Shown: in pieces, positions 3,542 through 26,539 of the stretch
Numbering within the stretch: position 1 is the stretch's first letter
How the letters are laid out: each line of letters begins with the position of its first letter
NCBI GenBank assembly: GCA_025455125.1
Contig: JALONE010000002.1
Coordinates: 1-28,036, forward strand
Direction of reading: 5' to 3'
Source of the DNA: Bacteroidota bacterium
Lineage (GTDB): Bacteria; Bacteroidota; Ignavibacteria; UBA10030
DNA: 28,036 bases
Program-made: the position numbers and the translations under genes
Notes under the pieces: model-generated
Told to the model about the DNA's origin: nothing
Seen by the model: only the letters and a program-made list of their open reading frames with translations
Databases searched by the model: none

Positions 3542-4036
3542 ATGCCGTCATCGTCCTCATCAACGATCATGCATCACATTCTTCATGCAATACGCGACGC
3601 GCTGGATGGATTCCTCTTCCGCTTGCAGCAGCATGTCGCGCTGCGAGTCGCGATCGGCATCTTCGTGATCATCCTGATGTCGAATCTCGTTGCCCTCGTG
3701 GATCTTTTCCTTCGTCCGGAGATCCCGTACTTTGACACGCAGCATATCGTCGTCGGGTTGGTGACCGGTTCGGTGACCACGGTGTTGTTCGGGATGCTGT
3801 CGATCTATGTCGCAAGCATGAAGCGGGCGATGCGGGAGATCAAGACGTTGGAGGGATTGCTGCCAATCTGCAGCCGGTGCAACAAGATCCGGACGCCGGA
3901 CAATCGGTGGGATGTTCTGGAGAAGTTCATTCAGGAGCGCACGGAGGCGACCTTCACACACAGCCTTTGCCCTGAGTGCGCACGCGCGCTCTATCCGGAG
4001 ATGTATGCGGGGGATAAGCCGGGAGAACGGGGCTAG
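3542..4036 (+). CDS. Small membrane protein (2 TM) with C-terminal Cx2C-x26-Hx2Cx2C putative Zn-binding domain
   Basis: Two hydrophobic stretches, a short helix, then LEGLLPICSRCNKIR...W...FTHSLCPEC. The start could be 3542 or the later ATG (MHHIL). Confidence 0.8.
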   Translation: MPSSSSSTIMHHILHAIRDALDGFLFRLQQHVALRVAIGIFVIILMSNLVALVDLFLRPEIPYFDTQHIVVGLVTGSVTTVLFGMLSIYVASMKRAMREIKTLEGLLPICSRCNKIRTPDNRWDVLEKFIQERTEATFTHSLCPECARALYPEMYAGDKPGERG

Positions 4037-18490: not shown

Positions 18491-19069
18491 ATGAGAACGA
18501 TGCCATTCAATCTCGGGATTCTGCTGCTGCTGATGTTCATTTTCGCTTCCTGCGGGAGCAGTGAGAATCCCCAATCCCGGAAGATGCCGGAGAAGGAATC
18601 AACGATGACGTGGAGTGATGTCGAGCGTTATGCGCGTGAGGGGAGTCCCAAGCCCGACCGTCGTGTCGAGAAGACACCTGAGCAATGGCGCGCGCAGTTG
18701 ACGAAGGAGCAGTATGCGGTCACGCGAATGAAGGGAACGGAACGGCCGTACACGGGCGAGTACTGCGAATCTCACGAGCCGGGAATCTACGCCTGCGTGT
18801 GTTGCCGGACGGAGCTGTTCGATTCGCGCGTGAAGTTCGAATCGGGGACGGGGTGGCCGAGTTTCACAGAGCCGATAAAGGTGAACGTCATTTCGTACCA
18901 CGAGGACGAATCGTACGGGATGTCCCGGATCGAGGTCTTGTGCAACGTCTGCGACGCGCACTTGGGCCACGTGTTTCCCGACGGACCGGGGAAGGGGGGC
19001 TTGCGGTTCTGCATCAACTCAGCGTCGCTGGTGCAAGTGGACAGTGTGGGAAATGCTATAACGCACTGA
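18491..19069 (+). CDS. msrB: Peptide-methionine (R)-S-oxide reductase with lipoprotein signal
   Basis: GTERPY, Zn-binding CVCC and CNVC, KFESGTGWPSF, HLGHVFPDGP and RFCINSASL. N-terminal lipobox FAS-C. Confidence 0.95.
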   Translation: MRTMPFNLGILLLLMFIFASCGSSENPQSRKMPEKESTMTWSDVERYAREGSPKPDRRVEKTPEQWRAQLTKEQYAVTRMKGTERPYTGEYCESHEPGIYACVCCRTELFDSRVKFESGTGWPSFTEPIKVNVISYHEDESYGMSRIEVLCNVCDAHLGHVFPDGPGKGGLRFCINSASLVQVDSVGNAITH

Positions 19070-19508
19070 GCGTGTTAGCCACGCCGTCGTGGATCCAAGT
19101 CCAAGAGGCCATGCATGCCTCGCTCGACCTTGAGGGGACCAATCGTTGAAACGATGCGATGATCGTTTGGAGTTCCTGGGGCGAGCGAATGCGGCTATTC
19201 TGGTAGGGTCCGGCGAAGAGGCGGCCTGAGCGTCGATAGCGCCTATTACAGCGACGCGCCACGCTGGTTTGAACGCGGTGCATCATGCGGGAAATGCTCC
19301 CGCCGACATTCTGCTCGAGAATCAGTTGGAATTCTTCCGATGCAAGAGAGCGCGCGAGTATCCGCACGTTTTCCTGTTTGGAGGTCGTTGCGAGGACTTT
19401 GAGCATGTGGTGATAATCCGCATCGTCCCGGAATATGGGCGTGAACGCCGTTCCACGATTCGAGATGAGATAGGGGATGAGATCGATGATGGGGTCGGTG
19501 CGGTTCAT
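19056..19508 (-). mobile_element. RAYT/TnpA(Y1) HUH-transposase-like ORF, intact frame but catalytic residues replaced
   Basis: YLISNRG, IFRDDADY, ILARSLASEEFQLILEQ, SISRMM and NRRYRRSGRLFAGPY align with the RAYT scaffold. No HuH motif or catalytic Tyr. SD AAGGAG at 19527-19522. Confidence 0.75.
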
Positions 19509-19536: not shown

Positions 19537-19582
19537 GAAGGTTCCCTTCAGCTTAAATACGACATACATGAAGGGAACCTTC
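19537..19582. repeat. Perfect 14-bp inverted repeat with 18-nt loop (REP-like candidate)
   Basis: gaaggttcccttca (19537-19550) / tgaagggaaccttc (19569-19582). Confidence 0.85.
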
Positions 19583-19687
19583 AAGTTCAATCTGCCCACC
19601 AGCTTCTCTTGCAAGATCGTCCTCTTTCCCCCTCCACGCAACAAAATTCGTCCTGCATTTCCGGGAAAAATGTCTCTATCTTTGTCC

Positions 19688-20581
19688 ATGCTTCCCTTCC
19701 CCGGCGAACTTGCCGCCCTCGCGACCGCCTGCATGTGGACCGCCAGCTCGCTGGTCTTCGCTGCCGCGACGATCCGCATCGGCTCCATCTACGTCAATGT
19801 CACCCGCATCATCGCCGCCGCCGTGATGCTCTTCATCCTCCTGCTTCTCTTCGGATTGCACGTCGAGATCTCCGCTTCTCAAACGGGATTTCTCTTTGTG
19901 AGCGGTCTCGTCGGACTCGTCTTCGGCGATACCTTCCTTTTCAAATCGTACGAATACAACAGCGCCCGCATCAGCTCGCTCGTGATGTCCACCGCACCGG
20001 CACTTTCCGCCGTGTTCGGCTATCTTCTGCTCGATGAAACACTCTCCCCCATCGGCATCGTCGGTATGGCGATCACCCTCGCCGGCATCGCCATGGTGGT
20101 CCTCGATCGCCCCGATTCCTCGAGTTCCGCGATGCATCCTTCCACGATCGGCATCTTCTACGCGTTCCTCGGCTCCGTCGGTCAGGCCGGCGGTTTGATC
20201 CTCGCCAAGGCCGCGTTCGTGCAAGGACCGATCAACGGCTTCGTCGCAACCTTCGTCCGGATGTGCGCCGCCTTCGTCGTCATCCTGCCGCTCAATTGGC
20301 TCGCCGGGCGCTATCGCGAACCGCGGCGGGTCTTCACGCAGGATCGAAGAGCATTTTGGTTGACAATGCTCGGAGCAGTCCTTGGACCCGTCCTTGGCGT
20401 CACACTCAGCTTGGTCGCTGTATCCTACACGACGGTCGCGATCGCAGCGACGCTCATGGCAACGGTTCCGATCCTGATGCTGCCGACGGTGTGGTTCCTG
20501 CAGAAAGAACGCCTCACGTTCCGGGCGATCGTCGGGGCATTCGTGGCGGTAGGCGGCGTTGCGTTGTTGTTCTTGCGGTGA
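19688..20581 (+). CDS. DMT/EamA family transporter
   Basis: About 10 TM in two EamA halves (SGLVGLVFGDTFLF, LLDETLSP, QAGGLILAK, LQKERLT). ATG 19688 is preferred over 19568. Confidence 0.92.
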   Translation: MLPFPGELAALATACMWTASSLVFAAATIRIGSIYVNVTRIIAAAVMLFILLLLFGLHVEISASQTGFLFVSGLVGLVFGDTFLFKSYEYNSARISSLVMSTAPALSAVFGYLLLDETLSPIGIVGMAITLAGIAMVVLDRPDSSSSAMHPSTIGIFYAFLGSVGQAGGLILAKAAFVQGPINGFVATFVRMCAAFVVILPLNWLAGRYREPRRVFTQDRRAFWLTMLGAVLGPVLGVTLSLVAVSYTTVAIAATLMATVPILMLPTVWFLQKERLTFRAIVGAFVAVGGVALLFLR

Positions 20582-20588
20582 GGGTTTG

Positions 20589-23213
20589 CTACAACTTCTT
20601 CTTTGTATCCGCGTTCCCCATGGGATCCTTTTTTAGGAAGGACCCGTACAGTTTTTCCATGCACTCGGGACAGAGACTGTGGCTGAACTTTGCCTCGGAG
20701 TGCTCATGGATGTACCGCTCAAGATTGTTCCAGTATCCCTTGTCGTCCCGGATCTTCTTGCAGTTCGCACAGATCGGGATCAATCCCCCCAGGACTTTGA
20801 TGTTGACAAGAGCCTCGTCAACGCGCCGTTGCAGCTCCTCCTCGTGTTCGAGCAACTGGCGCACACGATAACGATAGATGCCGTAACCCGAGAGGAGGAG
20901 GATCGCGCCGCTCAGGATGAAGAACCACCAAGACTGATACCACATCGGCTTCAGGGTGATCGAGACCGTAGCCCCCTTCTCGTTCCACACACCGTCCCGA
21001 TTCGCGGCTTGAACACGGAACACATAGGTTCCGGGAAATAGCCCGGTATAGAACGCTTCCCGCCTGCTCCCCGCATCGATCCAGTCGTTGTCATATCCAT
21101 CCAGGCGATAGCGGAACCGGAGGTGTTCCGGAGCAATGAAGCTGAGCCCCGCATAGGTGAATTCCAGATCGCGCACACCCGGACCGAGTTCCATCACCGG
21201 TTGTTGACGCACCGGACTTCGCTCGGCACGGACCTGTTGGATGTCAACGGGGGGCGCCACGAGGTTCGTGCGGATGGTGCTCGGGTTGACGACCGCGACT
21301 CCGCGCACGGTCGGATACCAGAGCGATCCGGATCGCGTGCGCAATGAAGCCGGCTGAATGCCCCCGCAACATTCGCGACTCGGCATACCATCAAGATTGT
21401 CGATGAGCATGCCGTGCACGCGCGTGATTCTTCCGCTGGCACACGCGATGAGCTCGCTCTCCGAAACACGGTACAACCCCAGGTTTCCGGAGAGCCAGAC
21501 CATCCCATATTCATCTCGTTCAATGGAGAAGATGATGTCCTCTGCCAGTCCGTTGGCCGTTGTGACGCTCGTCCACCGGCCATCGGCAAATCGATTGAGA
21601 CCTCCACCGTACGTCCCCGCCCACATGCGTCCCGTTGAATCCTGATAGAAGCAGTTGATCGATTCATTCGAGAGTCCATGCTCATTCGTGTGGAGCACGG
21701 TTTTCCCGTTGACGTACGCCGCAATCCCGCTCCCGTCGCTGCCGATCCACATCGTGCCGTCTGAATCTTGCCAAAGACATGTGCCGAAATTCCTGGGGAG
21801 TCCGTCCGCGGCGGTCAGGTATGACCATTCCCCGCGTGAATAGCGTCCGATGACCGTGCCGATAACGCCAACCCAGACCGCTCCACTCCGGTCAACGAAG
21901 AGTGACTGAGCTCCCTCCAGTATGTGCGGTCCTCCTGGACGGATGCTCTCGATCCTTCCCGCATGATATCGTGCAAGTTCCTTCTCCGTCGCCATCCAGA
22001 CGGACCCTTCGCGATCGGCGATGATCGCATACACGGTGTTATGGGGAAGTCCTTCGCGCGTTGTGAACGTCGTGCGGGATTCTCGCGTCAGCCGATCCAC
22101 GCCGCTTCCATCCGTGCCAACCCAGATCGCTCCATCCACATCTTCACAGAGTGACCAGATCGATCCGCTTGAGAGCCGCGTCGGAGCGGTCAAGCCGACC
22201 GCACGCGACTGTCTCAATCGAAAGAGCCCGAATCCGTTTGTGCCGATCCAGAGACTCCCTTCCGGATCCTGATAGAGCGATGACACCGAGGGTTTGTCCC
22301 CCTTTATCAGGGAGATCGCTTCAAGGACAGAACCGTTCCACGCGTAAAGCCCGCCGGCGTAGGTTCCCACCCATGCGGTTCCCGATTGCGCCGACTGCAG
22401 GGAGAGGATTCGCTGTCGAGGATCAAGTTGTTGAACGGTACGAATGCTTCCGTTCTTCAGGACGGCCAGTCCGCTCCGCGTGCCGATCATGAGAGCCCCG
22501 CTCGCATCCTGGCCGATCGACTCTACGATGTCGTCGGGAAGCCCGTCTCGTCGCGTAAACACTCGCCACTGTGATCCTGTCTGCATGGCGATGCCGCGCG
22601 CGGTCCCCACCCACACCGTCCCTGTGCGATCAGTGAACAATGTTCGTATGTCGTCGCTTGGCAGTCCGTCTCTCGTTCGGATGCGGTTCACGCGCTCCTT
22701 GTCGAAGACAACGATCCCCGCCGTGCGCGTTCCGGCCCAGATCCTCCCGCTGCTGTCCTCGGTCAACGCAACGACGCCAACCCTTCCCAGATCGACCGTA
22801 TCTAATTGGTGTGTGAAGACCTGACCGTTGTAAGACATGAGACCATGATCATACGCGCCGATCCAGATGGTACCATCGCGCGTGATCGTGAGCGCGTTGA
22901 TCCAATCCTGTTGCAGCTCCGGCGTGTTCGCCTGGTGATACGTAACAAAGGTGCGTCCGTCAAAACGGATCAATCCGCCCTGCGTGCCGAGCCAGAGATA
23001 GCCGTCCGGAGTTTGACCGATCGCCTGGATGGAGTTCTGCGGAAGACCGTCATCGCTTGTCCAGACATCGACAGTGAATGCCCGGGGCAAGACGGGTGCT
23101 TGATTCGAGCGCGGCTGGCCGAAGAGGAGGGAACCGCTGAACATCAACCAGCCGAGGGTGAATAACAAACAGTGTGTCGGCTCGATCGCCCCCAATGGAG
23201 ATTTCCTCAACAT
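20589..23213 (-). CDS. Periplasmic ligand-binding sensor: two-component-regulator propeller repeats + Y_Y_Y + TM + Cx2C-x26-Hx2Cx2C output domain
   Basis: Repeated DGLP...DxxGxxWxGT blades, FRYRLDGYDNDW...PGTYVFRVQAAN, TM WWFFILSG, then GGLIPICANCKKIRDDKGYW...SHSLCPEC. Start ATG 23213 is inferred. Confidence 0.9.
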   Translation of the reverse strand: MLRKSPLGAIEPTHCLLFTLGWLMFSGSLLFGQPRSNQAPVLPRAFTVDVWTSDDGLPQNSIQAIGQTPDGYLWLGTQGGLIRFDGRTFVTYHQANTPELQQDWINALTITRDGTIWIGAYDHGLMSYNGQVFTHQLDTVDLGRVGVVALTEDSSGRIWAGTRTAGIVVFDKERVNRIRTRDGLPSDDIRTLFTDRTGTVWVGTARGIAMQTGSQWRVFTRRDGLPDDIVESIGQDASGALMIGTRSGLAVLKNGSIRTVQQLDPRQRILSLQSAQSGTAWVGTYAGGLYAWNGSVLEAISLIKGDKPSVSSLYQDPEGSLWIGTNGFGLFRLRQSRAVGLTAPTRLSSGSIWSLCEDVDGAIWVGTDGSGVDRLTRESRTTFTTREGLPHNTVYAIIADREGSVWMATEKELARYHAGRIESIRPGGPHILEGAQSLFVDRSGAVWVGVIGTVIGRYSRGEWSYLTAADGLPRNFGTCLWQDSDGTMWIGSDGSGIAAYVNGKTVLHTNEHGLSNESINCFYQDSTGRMWAGTYGGGLNRFADGRWTSVTTANGLAEDIIFSIERDEYGMVWLSGNLGLYRVSESELIACASGRITRVHGMLIDNLDGMPSRECCGGIQPASLRTRSGSLWYPTVRGVAVVNPSTIRTNLVAPPVDIQQVRAERSPVRQQPVMELGPGVRDLEFTYAGLSFIAPEHLRFRYRLDGYDNDWIDAGSRREAFYTGLFPGTYVFRVQAANRDGVWNEKGATVSITLKPMWYQSWWFFILSGAILLLSGYGIYRYRVRQLLEHEEELQRRVDEALVNIKVLGGLIPICANCKKIRDDKGYWNNLERYIHEHSEAKFSHSLCPECMEKLYGSFLKKDPMGNADTKKKL

Positions 23214-23265
23214 GGACGAAAGATAGCGAATCGCTGCTGAAATGCCAAGCGAGTGCTTGTCAGCC

Positions 23266-24789
23266 TCAATGGGGGAGAAGGAATTCCGGCTCATCCGGAC
23301 GGACCGCATCGTGCATGTTCCGCAATGCTTGAAACGCCGCCTCGCTTCCCCTGCGCATGGAGCGATGATACATCCGGTAGGCTTCCCCTTTGTCGATCGA
23401 CCTGCCGAGACCGCGTTCCGCCGCGTACGCAAGGGCGACATCGGCAATGAGCGAGCCGTTGGCCGAGGCGGAATCGAGATGTGCGAGTGCCGGACGAAGA
23501 GTCTCTGTCGTCGTGTCTCCAAGCACGGTGACCACTGCGAGACGAATGTTCGCCTCGCGATCGCCACGGCGCGCTGCTTCTTCCCACCAAGATCGCGCCC
23601 GATCCCGCGACGCCGGCATCCATCGGCCCGTCATCGCACACCATCCCAGTTCGATCATCGCCGGCACAAACCCTTGCGCGGCTGCACGTTCCAGGAGCCG
23701 CAATGCCTGTTCCGTGCTCAGCACCTCCGTGAACTTGAGCGCCGTCAATCCAGACCACACATACAACGCTTCGCTGGAGTTGCGATCCGTGCCGGCCTTC
23801 AACAACCGGACGAATTCATCCTCGCGCGAGATCTTCCACAGCAAGCCCGGCGCACGATAGGAGTCGAGCCGCACAGCGCGCAGGTAGTGGACGGCCGCCT
23901 GCAATGCGTTCGGCGCAACGTAGATCCCTTCTTCGTACATCCGCCCCACGACGCAATGCGCCTCGGGATTGCCGTTTGCCGCCGCATCGATCATCTGCCG
24001 ATAGATGCTTGTGTCCGGGAACATCGGCATTCGTTCGCTGCCTTCATCGCGGTCTGCGAGACTCCGCATCGCTTCACGCAGCAATGTCGAGTCCGGGACG
24101 CTTGTCACCGTATCCGTGTTGAAATCGACAAAGAGGAAACTGATCGTCGTGTCGGACGAGACGCGCGCTGATTCCTGGGATGGTCGCTCTCGCCCCGGTG
24201 ATACAATGTCCGTGGTTGCAACACGATCCAGTCCGCGTCGTTCAAGTTCCTTCGCGGCTTCACGCGCGCCGTCATGTCCCTGGTCTGCCGCCCGTCGAAA
24301 GTACGTGTATGCTTCCGGCCAGTTCCGCGGAACGACGAAGTTCTCCGTATAGCAGAGCCCCGTGATGAACAGACCCTCCGGGACATTCGCTTCGGCCGCC
24401 CGACGGAAATTCCTGAACGCCTCGAACGGATCCCATTCCGTTCCGTACCCGTTCGATTGAAGGATGCCGAGATTGAACTGCGCAAGCCCCATCCCCTGCA
24501 CCGCTGCGCGGGAGATCCAGAAGACCGCCTTCGATGTGTCTGCGGGAAATCCCTTCCCGAACAAGTACCGGAGCCCGAGTTCATGCTGCGCGGCAGGAAC
24601 GCCGGTGTTGGCTTCCTGGATGAGGACGAACGCCTCCAGCATCCGGCGATCGGCGTCCGAGGGAACTATGAGTTGATGCACCTCGCGCGGACGATCGCGT
24701 TTGAACGCCTGCGACTGCGCAACAAGCATCTGCGTGGAGAGAAGGACGAGGAACGGCAGCAGTGTTCGCATATGCATGAGGGGAACCAT
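23266..24789 (-). CDS. Exported Sel1-like repeat protein
   Basis: Repeats AQHELGLRYLFGKG, AQFNLGILQSNGYG, GLCYTENFVVPRN, GRMYEEGIYV and AMIELG...G. Signal peptide; the start may be 24789, 24777 or 24771. Confidence 0.88.
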   Translation of the reverse strand: MVPLMHMRTLLPFLVLLSTQMLVAQSQAFKRDRPREVHQLIVPSDADRRMLEAFVLIQEANTGVPAAQHELGLRYLFGKGFPADTSKAVFWISRAAVQGMGLAQFNLGILQSNGYGTEWDPFEAFRNFRRAAEANVPEGLFITGLCYTENFVVPRNWPEAYTYFRRAADQGHDGAREAAKELERRGLDRVATTDIVSPGRERPSQESARVSSDTTISFLFVDFNTDTVTSVPDSTLLREAMRSLADRDEGSERMPMFPDTSIYRQMIDAAANGNPEAHCVVGRMYEEGIYVAPNALQAAVHYLRAVRLDSYRAPGLLWKISREDEFVRLLKAGTDRNSSEALYVWSGLTALKFTEVLSTEQALRLLERAAAQGFVPAMIELGWCAMTGRWMPASRDRARSWWEEAARRGDREANIRLAVVTVLGDTTTETLRPALAHLDSASANGSLIADVALAYAAERGLGRSIDKGEAYRMYHRSMRRGSEAAFQALRNMHDAVRPDEPEFLLPH

Positions 24790-24816
24790 GGAAGACAATT
24801 TCGTATATTGAGATTG

Positions 24817-24865
24817 GAGTAACAAGTAGAGAGTATCGAATCGGGAGTAGAAAGACGGGAGAACA
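24817..24865 (+). repeat. Degenerate RAGTAnn heptamer array overlapping the ettA ribosome-binding region
   Basis: gagtaac aagtaga gagtatc gaatcgg gagtaga aagacgg gagaaca; same class as 14401-14435. Confidence 0.5.
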
Positions 24866-24868
24866 TCG

Positions 24869-26539
24869 GTGGCGGATCAGAAGATCATTTTTTCGATGAT
24901 TGGTGTTGGCAAGGTGGTGAAGCCGAATCGGCAGATCCTCAAGGATATTTATCTGTCATTCTTCTACGGTGCGAAGATCGGTGTGCTGGGACTCAACGGC
25001 GCCGGAAAAAGCACGCTCTTGCGTATCATCGCGGGTGAGGATAAGGACTATCTCGGCCAGATCACCGCGCAGAAGGGGATCACATTCGGCTATCTGCCGC
25101 AGGAGCCTCAGTTCGAACCCGGCAAAACCGTCCGCGAGATCGTTCAGGAAGGCGTGCAGGAAACCGTGGACCTTCTCGCCGAGTATGAGAAGATCAATCA
25201 GGCACTCGCCGAACCCGACGCCGATTACGACACCTTGCTCGAGAAACAGAGCAAACTCCAGGAACAGATCGACCACAAGAACGCCTGGGACCTCGACAGC
25301 AAGCTCGAGCAGGCGATGGATGCCCTTCGCTGTCCCCCGGCGGATGCCGCTGTCGATGTCCTTTCCGGCGGAGAGCGGCGCCGTGTCGCTCTGTGCCGTC
25401 TTCTGCTCAAAGAACCCGACGTCCTTTTGTTAGACGAACCAACGAACCATTTGGACGCAGAATCGGTCGCATGGCTGGAACATCATTTGAGCCGGTATGC
25501 GGGAACGGTCATCGCGGTGACACACGACCGCTACTTCCTCGATAATGTGGCTGGATGGATCCTCGAACTGGACCGGGGTGAAGGGATCCCATTCGAGGGA
25601 AACTACTCGTCCTGGTTGGAACAGAAGAAGAAACGCCTGGAAGTGGAGGAAAAGCAGGAATCAAAGCGCCAACGAGTTCTCCAACGCGAACTTGATTGGG
25701 TCCGTCTCAATCCTCGTGGACGTCACGCGAAGGCAAAGGCGCGCATTGCGGCGTATGAGAAGATGCTGCAGGATCAGCCGGAGAAGCGGGATGAGGAGAT
25801 CGAGATCTACGTCCCTCCTGGACCTCGATTGGGAGATGTGGTCATCGAAGCTTCGGGCCTCAGCAAATCATACGGCGACAATCTCCTGTTTGAGAACCTC
25901 GAGTTCGCGCTCCCCCCAGGCGGAATCATCGGTGTCATCGGGCCGAACGGCGCGGGCAAGACCACGCTCTTCCGATTGATCACGGGCCAAGAGAAGCCCG
26001 ACAACGGAGAGATCAAGATCGGCGAAACGGTCAAGCTTGCTTATGTCGATCAAGCACGGCCACTCGATCCGGAGAAGACCATCTGGCAGGAGATCTCCGG
26101 AGGCGAGGATCTGATCCGTCTTGGTTCACGGGAGGTGAACTCTCGCGGGTACGTGGCGCGATTCAATTTCAGCGGGACGGACCAGCAGAAACCCGTCGGC
26201 ATTCTTTCCGGCGGCGAACGGAATCGCGTACACCTCGCAAAGATCCTCCGTGAGGGAGCGAATGTTCTTCTTCTCGACGAGCCGACCAACGATCTCGACG
26301 TCAACACGCTCCGCGCCCTGGAAGAAGCGCTGACGAACTTCGCAGGATGCGCGGTCATTATCTCGCACGACCGCTGGTTCCTCGACCGCCTCGCGACACA
26401 CATCCTCGCGTTCGAAGGAGACAGCACGGTCCAATGGTTCGACGGGAACTACTCAGAATACGAGGAACACCGGAAGAAGGTACTCGGCATCGACGCCGAC
26501 CAACCGCACAGGATCAAGTATAAGAGGCTGACGAGGTGA
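24869..26539 (+). CDS. ettA: Energy-dependent translational throttle protein EttA (ABC-F)
   Basis: ILKDIYLSFFYGAKIGVLGLNGAGKSTLL, LSGGERRRVAL, DEPTNHLD, inter-domain linker, second NBD GPNGAGKTT/LSGGERNR, and PHRIKYKRL terminus. GTG start. Confidence 0.97.
   Translation: MADQKIIFSMIGVGKVVKPNRQILKDIYLSFFYGAKIGVLGLNGAGKSTLLRIIAGEDKDYLGQITAQKGITFGYLPQEPQFEPGKTVREIVQEGVQETVDLLAEYEKINQALAEPDADYDTLLEKQSKLQEQIDHKNAWDLDSKLEQAMDALRCPPADAAVDVLSGGERRRVALCRLLLKEPDVLLLDEPTNHLDAESVAWLEHHLSRYAGTVIAVTHDRYFLDNVAGWILELDRGEGIPFEGNYSSWLEQKKKRLEVEEKQESKRQRVLQRELDWVRLNPRGRHAKAKARIAAYEKMLQDQPEKRDEEIEIYVPPGPRLGDVVIEASGLSKSYGDNLLFENLEFALPPGGIIGVIGPNGAGKTTLFRLITGQEKPDNGEIKIGETVKLAYVDQARPLDPEKTIWQEISGGEDLIRLGSREVNSRGYVARFNFSGTDQQKPVGILSGGERNRVHLAKILREGANVLLLDEPTNDLDVNTLRALEEALTNFAGCAVIISHDRWFLDRLATHILAFEGDSTVQWFDGNYSEYEEHRKKVLGIDADQPHRIKYKRLTR

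Follow-up and report, generated by a model that had tools for sequence, protein, structure and literature searches.

In this study, we concluded that the minus-strand gene at 20589..23213 of the window (the whole stretch of DNA that was analysed, 28,036 nucleotides) encodes a functional periplasmic ligand sensor, assigned by homology to the hybrid two-component (HTCS) type. In the reading that we prefer, with a probability of about 0.45, the sole cytoplasmic part of this sensor is a dimeric coiled coil followed by an output module of ~46 residues, a Zn(Cys)4 alpha/beta domain (hereafter the tail), whose trans-acting partner is encoded elsewhere. Bacterial sensor proteins are interpreted by their output domain, and the output domain of this gene and of about 20,000 further protein families is without name, structure or function. 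The features of the sensor, with residues numbered as in its 874-aa version, and of two other genes of the window are as follows.

20589..23213, minus strand: whole sensor gene, 874 codons and a stop, from the ATG at 23213
23118..23171, minus strand: hydrophobic helix at the N-terminus, residues 15-32, by its sequence either a signal peptide or the first transmembrane (TM) helix
21141..23102, minus strand: periplasmic Reg_prop beta-propeller region, about residues 38-691 (Pfam), related to 4A2L and 3V9F
20955..21140, minus strand: Y_Y_Y domain, residues 692-753 (Pfam PF07495, E 2.1e-18)
20874..20930, minus strand: TM helix, residues 762-780, a hydrophobic 19-mer at the same position in orthologues
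20784..20873, minus strand: cytoplasmic heptad-patterned helix, residues 781-810, helical in the model and an ungapped conserved linker in orthologues
20646..20783, minus strand: tail domain, residues 811-856, CxxC-x26-HxxCxxC, with C815, C818, H845, C848, C851 and an invariant Trp
20592..20645, minus strand: Lys-rich C-terminal extension, residues 857-874, variable and not conserved among orthologues
23266..24825, minus strand: Sel1-repeat gene, directly upstream of the sensor on the same strand, a context kept in one related locus
3542..4036, plus strand: paralogue "copy 1", a small membrane protein with the same tail at its end

The periplasmic part of the sensor matched Pfam Reg_prop (E 2.8e-52, with 7 repeats above threshold) and two hybrid two-component sensors of known structure, 4A2L/4A2M (E 2.8e-50) and 3V9F (E 9e-48). 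The earlier note on this DNA had read a propeller and Y_Y_Y periplasmic sensor with one TM helix before the coil, and these matches and the TM helix position shared with orthologues agreed with it; the "double propeller" is probable by homology. From the TM helix to the C-terminus of the sensor there are 94 residues, and the last ~120 residues of the protein had no match in Pfam and none in NCBIfam. The heptad-patterned helix runs into the tail with no break between them. At about 30 residues it is longer than the coiled coil of about 20 aa first proposed, and the Cx2C-x26-Hx2Cx2C motif was present as described, but 18 residues follow the tail before the stop that had been placed immediately after it. 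In the HTCS proteins (BT4663, PDB 4A2L/4A2M; 3V9F), the same periplasmic Reg_prop and Y_Y_Y modules are also followed by a single TM helix, whereas the chain then continues into HisKA-HATPase-REC-AraC, of which the sensor here has none (Pfam, NCBIfam); unlike in that comparison, the sensor lies outside a SusC/SusD polysaccharide-utilisation locus. The locus is a clean case: only one TM helix and a short coiled coil lie between a well-understood sensor type of solved structure and the tail.

The same tail ends 59 of the 119 closest relatives (847-921 aa), and the remaining ones have HisKA/HATPase, HisKA_3, GGDEF, AraC or Pkinase (Ser/Thr kinase) at the tail position. The His kinase, GGDEF and AraC outputs that had been expected for such sensors were recovered, but PP2C was found in none of the 120 closest relatives. 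In GGDEF cyclases and HisKA/DHp proteins, coiled-coil (signalling-helix) coupling follows the same sensor modules, as it does before the tail; the tail differs from these outputs in its size of ~46 residues, its predicted metal site and the absence of a catalytic domain. Because it is the last domain, stands at the transmitter or effector position and also occurs after phospho-receiver domains, the tail behaves as an output module. The proposal of a true output held as far as this effector position, although the likeness to Fur and PerR described below leaves a passive dimer clamp as an alternative.

The tail family was defined in this analysis by profile A2/A4. Its motif, CxxC-x26-HxxCxxC with four Cys and a His in ~46 residues, had identical spacing in 336 of 336 collected tails, though the search pattern permitted 15-40, and the profile search gave 24,684 cluster representatives at E <= 1e-3 (20,211 at E <= 1e-10). 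Since the spacing is constant and the matches are so many, the motif is not due to chance, and the tail is shown to be a very large uncurated family. Among the best 149 of the 24,684 matches examined, the tail closed the protein with a single exception, and more than 50 residues followed the last tail in 1/149. Two tail matches per protein were found in 43 of the same 149, one second match being partial, and several of the two-tail proteins, when checked, proved to be MASE6-tail-MASE6-tail; on their sequence, these would be covalent pseudo-dimers, consistent with a module that works in pairs. The four Cys and the His of HxxCxxC were invariant among the aligned tails, and the non-ligand residues P, K, R, D, G, W, E and Y were conserved at 94-100% in 418 distinct tails, a conservation that, judged from these alignments, is far above the needs of a zinc knuckle. 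The sensor tail scored 134 bits in the profile search of its own genome and has the family features, namely the motif, the conserved P, K, R, DD, G, W and E, and a terminal position after a helix or coiled coil.

The earlier note had allowed for a domain that was already assigned. When the tail alone and the whole protein were searched against Pfam and NCBIfam, there was no family for the tail; the tail profile had no match among PDB sequences (best E 0.07), ESM Atlas gave only unnamed short clusters, and the literature, searched by motif strings and keywords (output domain, zinc ribbon/finger, response regulator), gave no description of the tail. No functional assignment, database family, solved structure or paper was found in these sources. 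The nearest find in the literature was an archaeal census with HalOD2, a different domain. HalOD2 (PF18547) serves haloarchaeal response regulators as an output domain; it is small, stands after REC, has two CxxC motifs and is a predicted Zn finger of unknown function (PMC5847659). The tail is likewise small, post-REC and furnished with two CxxC motifs, and the HalOD2 Pfam model was unlisted against it even at E <= 10.

The domain-only tail model was folded as beta-beta-beta-alpha-beta-alpha; the tail models were of moderate confidence (pLDDT 83 and 76) and were monomers without metal, and the fold search with the coil included in the model matched nothing. With the domain-only model, the first PDB match in Foldseek was Fur, a weak one (E 0.65, TM 0.47), and the first of 48,161 chains in VIA-align was PerR, residues 89-144 (Z 2.3, 2.1 A over 34 residues, 32% identity), and hhalign with 15 Fur relatives brought the two CxxC pairs into line with those of the Fur dimerisation domain (P 0.004, at a probability of only 8%). 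In these models, the tail most resembles, if weakly, the zinc-locked Fur/PerR dimerisation domain. That domain (B. subtilis PerR 2FE3 ~89-144; Fur 9A4A; Zur 7NE9), which carries the structural Zn(Cys)4 site of these metalloregulators, has two CxxC pairs as the tail does, and the two share a conserved His or aromatic strand before the second pair, the secondary-structure order beta-beta-alpha-beta-alpha and the local motif I-C-x-N-C-x-K-I-x-D. In contrast, the Cys-pair spacing is 29 residues in the tail and about 36-37 in Fur relatives, the non-ligand residues RDD, GYW, E and FSH differ from those of Fur, and the tail lacks Fur's winged helix and is placed at the C-terminus of sensor proteins, behind a coiled coil. 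Pfam FUR (PF01475) had no match in the tail, and the N-terminal winged-helix DNA-binding domain of the Fur family was absent from the sensor protein (Pfam). Four invariant Cys, the likeness to Fur/PerR and the occurrence of two tails in one chain together suggest a tail that binds zinc as Zn(Cys)4 and dimerises; the sensor protein and its coiled coil are likewise presumed to be dimeric. Several tail-bearing AlphaFold DB entries that matched the tail model are auto-named "histidine kinase".

A sigma/anti-sigma link had also been suggested, and it was not borne out: zf-HC2 had no match in the tail, and the ZAS (zf-HC2) motif is H-x3-C-x2-C, whereas that of the tail is H-x2-C-x2-C. Fin, the anti-sigma-F factor of B. 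subtilis (PDB 5MSL), a small Zn protein, ranked third in the wide search by structure, with a Z of 2.2 and an rmsd of 4.4 A over 45 aligned residues; it has no sequence relation to the tail and its score is at noise level, which makes it a lead only.

Eight tail genes were found in this genome (55% complete), in which the tails are preceded by Reg_prop/Y_Y_Y, a small membrane anchor, HisKA_7TM-PAS (two in tandem), MASE1, TPR or REC. Copy 1 aligned with the sensor without gaps (32/66 identity, E 4e-22), as expected from the claim that both carry the same tail, and the REC, PAS, MASE1, 7TM and TPR modules supported the further claim that the tail accompanies very different inputs. The REC-tail architecture implies that the tail module lies downstream of phosphorylation. 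There are also small tail proteins of about 100-165 aa, with only a membrane anchor or coiled coil and the tail. Short stand-alone tail matches, considered as a way to a partner, were mostly contig fragments; P0210 belongs to a 7TM-PAS gene as its frameshifted end, P0140 had uninformative neighbours, and P0195 is flanked by a kinase and a receiver. The carriers come mostly from anoxic or micro-oxic habitats (wetland, sediment, sludge) and belong to phyla that include Desulfobacterota, Ignavibacteria/Bacteroidota, Acidobacteriota, Spirochaetota, Planctomycetota and Nitrospirota, with 6-12 tails per genome in one genus.

Considering these results, we have proposed a plausible course of signalling for the sensor. 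Binding of an external ligand would shift the TM helix together with the coiled-coil register, and this shift would alter the packing of the two tail protomers, as in a zinc-locked dimerisation domain of the Fur/PerR type. The new packing would expose or hide the strongly conserved R, DD, W, E, H surface, and the trans-acting partner, the product of a gene elsewhere in the genome, would bind there. The tail is tiny and of fixed length and offers mutational handles (the four Cys, His, Trp and RDD), and is therefore directly testable. If it is a genuine output, current annotation misses some of the signalling capacity of the carrier phyla.

A survey of 80 loci from many phyla, with 83 tail genes, gave 47 close neighbours on the same strand, which had no common family beyond 3 PAS/kinase genes. 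Around this genome's own tail genes, the neighbours were unrelated (HypD, YkuD, radical SAM, an outer-membrane protein and one single receiver), and in the orthologue neighbourhoods (P0011, P0016, P0020) only the Sel1/EamA/ABC-F context recurred, in one related locus. The census that had been advised thus confirmed the terminal position of the domain but yielded no co-occurring neighbour, and the proposed common partner downstream and new transmembrane route found no support in the same 80 loci. As the partner was not found, a new signalling route is only a candidate. We hold only tentatively that the tail marks an undescribed and very widespread route, in which dozens of sensors and response regulators per genome would converge via the tail, as a nearly invariant zinc-locked dimer, on one common trans-acting target never encoded alongside; if true, its scope would be comparable to that of histidine-kinase, GGDEF or chemoreceptor outputs.

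The tail might instead be a mere zinc-locked dimerisation or stability clamp with no output of its own, which we consider unlikely. The proteins would then be ligand sinks, or would form mixed assemblies with kinase or cyclase paralogues of the same input domain, the contact being made by the sensor, TM or coiled-coil parts. This would agree with the best fold and profile matches, which are to a pure dimerisation domain (Fur/PerR), with the existence of two-tail pseudo-dimers, with the abundance of homologous sensors that have kinase or GGDEF outputs, with a Reg_prop/Y_Y_Y kinase adjoining the tail gene in one locus (L109), and with the lack of a partner gene conserved nearby. However, a clamp does not account for the charged and aromatic non-ligand positions that stay 94-100% conserved in different phyla and architectures, for REC-tail regulators in which the tail is the only non-receiver part, or for the small proteins made of an anchor or coiled coil and the tail only.

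PerR, RsrA and Hsp33 have Cys sites that lose zinc or form disulfides. It is rather improbable that the tail is such a redox or metal switch, in which the Cys4(+His) site would respond in these ways as a second input, gating or integrating the signal of the N-terminal sensor. The four invariant Cys and the invariant His of HxxCxxC would suit it, as would the mostly anoxic or micro-oxic habitats of the carriers and the top structural match, PerR-Zn, whose PDB entry title calls its Zn(Cys)4 site a structural redox switch. An input-only tail would nevertheless leave REC-tail and sensor-tail proteins without an output, and the tail genes had no link to redox genes in the neighbour census.

Zn-ribbon and treble-clef modules are frequent nucleic-acid binders, and the site before flgB is a common place of flagellar transcription regulators. 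With this precedent, and with a REC-tail gene that receives its input from an Hpt-bearing hybrid kinase and stands directly before flgB-flgC-fliE-fliF-fliG in one lineage (family f2), the tail might bind DNA or RNA, and its carriers might be (membrane-tethered) transcription or translation regulators. We give this little chance, with the tails not basic (mean net charge -0.5, sd 1.6, n=418), no match to a helix-turn-helix or known nucleic-acid-binding family, the sensor tail only about 30 helical residues from the membrane, and the flagellar context limited to that one family.

It is very improbable that the tail feeds a known system, either the flagellar motor and its genes, as the context in family f2 would allow, or cyclic-di-GMP signalling, given that GGDEF was present in 44/45 tail-positive genomes versus 150/300 overall in the phylum sample. 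Flagella were rejected as a general target, for FliG had no match in 31 of the 45 tail-positive genomes, including the genus with 6-12 tails per genome, and 68 FliG-positive genomes of the phylum sample were without a tail. Against an obligatory cyclic-di-GMP link there is one clean counter-example, a 99% complete genome (G111) with a tail gene and no GGDEF even at E 0.01, and the overlap of GGDEF and tail follows lineages and may only mark signalling-rich clades. The complete GGDEF protein of this genome is an ordinary GAF-GAF-GGDEF, and a second GGDEF gene is interrupted by the end of its contig.

The start codon of the sensor gene, which lies within an open ORF spanning 20589..23567 on the minus strand, is uncertain (23213 versus 23309): the public gene call P0003 starts at 23309, 32 codons further up, giving 906 aa and an overlap with the end of the Sel1 gene, and the mature protein is the same either way. 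That this copy is a truncated kinase gene, as the earlier note had feared, or an assembly artefact can be dismissed, since its only support is the absence of a known output domain, 59 full-length relatives end identically, and the same gene occurs with no indels in independent metagenome assemblies (other samples, other studies), its strain variants being mostly synonymous (20 of the 30 listed). All 5 variants within the coil, tail and C-terminal extension are synonymous. The sensor gene is covered by metatranscriptome contigs and is under purifying selection.

The minus-strand gene at 20589-23213 encodes a real, conserved sensor of the HTCS type (the hybrid two-component sensors of Bacteroides), and its sole cytoplasmic domain, here called the tail, belongs to a huge unnamed Cys4 family and occupies the output position. 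The frame 20589-23567 is open throughout and gives 874 residues from the ATG at 23213; the public call (P0003, 906 aa) begins at 23309, inside the end of the upstream Sel1 gene, which leaves the exact start uncertain, and the mature protein is the same whichever start is used. Pfam recognized Reg_prop repeats (E 2.8e-52) and Y_Y_Y (E 2.1e-18), the periplasmic part is homologous to the solved hybrid two-component sensors 4A2L/4A2M from Bacteroides (E 2.8e-50) and 3V9F, the last ~120 residues had no Pfam match, and NCBIfam gave nothing further. The layout is as follows.

Layout of the sensor protein
Residues 15-32: hydrophobic helix
Up to residue 753: propellers and Y_Y_Y (692-753)
Residues 762-780: TM helix
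Residues 781-810: heptad-patterned helix
Residues 811-856: tail (C815, C818, H845, C848, C851)
After the tail: Lys-rich end of 18 residues

The earlier note had described this protein correctly save for small details: the coiled coil measures ~30 rather than ~20 residues, the Lys-rich extension intervenes between the Cys/His domain and the stop, and PP2C, listed there as a usual output, was not seen among close relatives. Truncation of a kinase, which that note wished checked, was rejected: among the 119 nearest full-length relatives, 59 proteins of 847-921 aa finish with this tail, and the remainder have HisKA/HATPase, HisKA_3, GGDEF, AraC or Ser/Thr-kinase domains in its place. Metagenomes assembled independently from soil and freshwater sediment contain the gene with no indels. 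Of the 30 strain variants listed, 20 are synonymous, among them all five that fall in the coil, the tail or the C-terminal extension; the other 10 replace a residue, almost always conservatively, in the N-terminal leader or the periplasmic part. Contigs from two wetland metatranscriptomes span the sensor, tail included, yet omit 19000-19433, which DNA runs cover evenly; since RNA libraries can contain DNA, transcription of the sensor is likely rather than proven. These contigs lie over 19650-23300 (EamA and sensor genes), leaving the RAYT-like region uncovered and the Sel1 gene partly covered, and DNA runs are even over all four genes.

No model for the tail was found in Pfam or NCBIfam, even when the tail alone was queried at E <= 10, and none of the PDB sequences matched it (best E 0.07). 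The ESM Atlas held only unnamed clusters, AlphaFold DB matches were further members of the family bearing the automatic names 'histidine kinase' or 'PAS domain S-box protein', and full-text literature searches, motif strings included, found no description; archaeal HalOD2 (PMC5847659) is a different, larger module. No functional assignment of the domain was found in these sources. A 67-column profile with invariant L, P, C, C, R, W, H, C and C matched 24,684 representatives of 50%-identity clusters at E <= 1e-3 (20,211 at <= 1e-10). The CxxC-x26-HxxCxxC spacing was constant in 336/336 tails under a pattern permitting 15-40 residues, and non-ligand P, K, R, D, G, W, E and Y were 94-100% conserved among 418 distinct tails. 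With one genome scanned for each species, 599 of the 600 candidate stretches listed were confirmed as tails, and 80 loci were retained from Ignavibacteria/Bacteroidota, Desulfobacterota, Acidobacteriota, Verrucomicrobiota, Planctomycetota, Nitrospirota, Spirochaetota, Chloroflexota, Calditrichota and others. Seemingly stand-alone tails proved mostly to be fragments.

The window's genome (G000), a 2-Mb, 55%-complete metagenome assembly, carries eight tail genes.

Tail genes in the window's genome
Window 20589-23213, minus strand: HTCS-type sensor
Window 3542-4036: small membrane protein
Contig C239, L136:1592-4166: two tandem paralogous HisKA_7TM-PAS-tail genes, directly 3' of the hydrogenase maturation gene hypD
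Contig C232, L139:3357-4413, minus strand: receiver domain followed by tail (REC-tail)
Elsewhere: MASE1 protein
Elsewhere: TPR protein
Elsewhere: gene cut by a contig end

HTCS-type, 7TM-PAS, MASE1, TPR and REC proteins in one genome bear out the claim that the domain is coupled to very different inputs, and the REC-tail architecture places the tail downstream of phosphorylation, at the position of an effector domain. A single-domain receiver gene immediately precedes the REC-tail gene, and single receivers also adjoin tail genes in loci L016 and L099. We infer, at a probability of about 0.45, that the tail is a zinc-locked dimeric module which would be driven by the coiled coil and whose conserved surface would bind a trans-acting partner encoded elsewhere.

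A new transmembrane route with a shared partner, as the earlier note proposed, is rather less likely than not. The proposed census found varied architectures and no shared partner gene nearby: genes were called and clustered in the 80 loci, and of the 47 close neighbours lying on the same strand as the 83 tail genes, three carried PAS/kinase domains and the remainder were singletons. Orthologue neighbourhoods differ, and the following context recurs in only one related locus (L010).

Window 23266-26539 and 19568-20581: ABC-F ATPase (divergent), Sel1-repeat protein, sensor, EamA transporter (convergent)

In L010 this order surrounds a 36%-identical sensor (P0020), with an additional 837-aa gene, lacking a Pfam match, between Sel1 and sensor. 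In single-tail genomes the tail gene lies inside two-component clusters, which is suggestive, if anecdotal, of cross-talk with phosphorelays; at L101:1185-6835, dCache-PAS-PAS-tail, a REC-PAS-HisKA-HATPase-REC kinase and an NtrC-type sigma-54 activator follow one another with gaps of 27 bp and 4 bp and may form a three-part sensing operon.

Two tail matches occur in 43 of the 149 best representatives; about 40 (P0243-P0284, e.g., P0250, P0255, P0277; ~500-556 aa) have two tails, and several checked were internally duplicated membrane sensors, MASE6-tail-MASE6-tail, which look like natural covalent pseudo-dimers. More than 50 residues follow the last tail in only one of the 149 best of 24,684 matches, P0388, a REC-tail-GGDEF-like protein with a degenerate GGDEF signature and the only one with a real post-tail domain.

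The coil-plus-tail model was extended (pLDDT 83) and had no structural match; the domain-only model (pLDDT 76) is beta-beta-beta-alpha-beta-alpha. Its top Foldseek PDB match was Fur (9A4A_B, E 0.65, TM 0.47); Zur ranked 11th. From 48,161 chains VIA-align gave just three matches at Z >= 2, led by PerR-Zn residues 89-144 (Z 2.3, 2.1 A over 34 residues, 32% identity), with the anti-sigma factor Fin third. In hhalign against 15 Fur-family proteins from related genomes, both CxxC pairs were in register with the Fur dimerisation domain (P 0.004, probability 8%). The predicted resemblance agrees across three methods, each score being weak, and may mean that the tail works like Fur/PerR rather than belonging to that family. 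Fur itself (PF01475) had no match in any of three genomes searched from the window's genus (G000, G244, G301), one of them 100% complete; most relatives in the same family and order do have one.

Among other readings, a passive dimer clamp is unlikely and a redox or metal switch less probable still. Nucleic-acid binding is improbable because the tails are neutral (mean net charge -0.5, 418 tails), and a dedicated flagellar or c-di-GMP link is even less credible. In a sample of 300 near-complete genomes of the window's phylum, the tail occurred in 45, patchily by family, at 1-17 copies each. The flagellum was rejected as a general target because distributions disagree: FliG was present in 14 of the 45 carriers, and 68 FliG-positive genomes lacked the tail. 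GGDEF was found in 44 of the 45 but in 150 of 300 overall, and one 99%-complete carrier had none even at E 0.01. Flagellar context was absent outside one family of the same order, where HDOD, a GAF-HisKA-HATPase-REC-Hpt kinase, REC-tail (~190-250 aa) and flgB-flgC-fliE-fliF-fliG ... fliI keep the same order (L110:4524-14612; also L102, L104, L111), which suggests that in this family REC-tail acts as the last regulator in a phosphorelay, at the head of the flagellar cluster.
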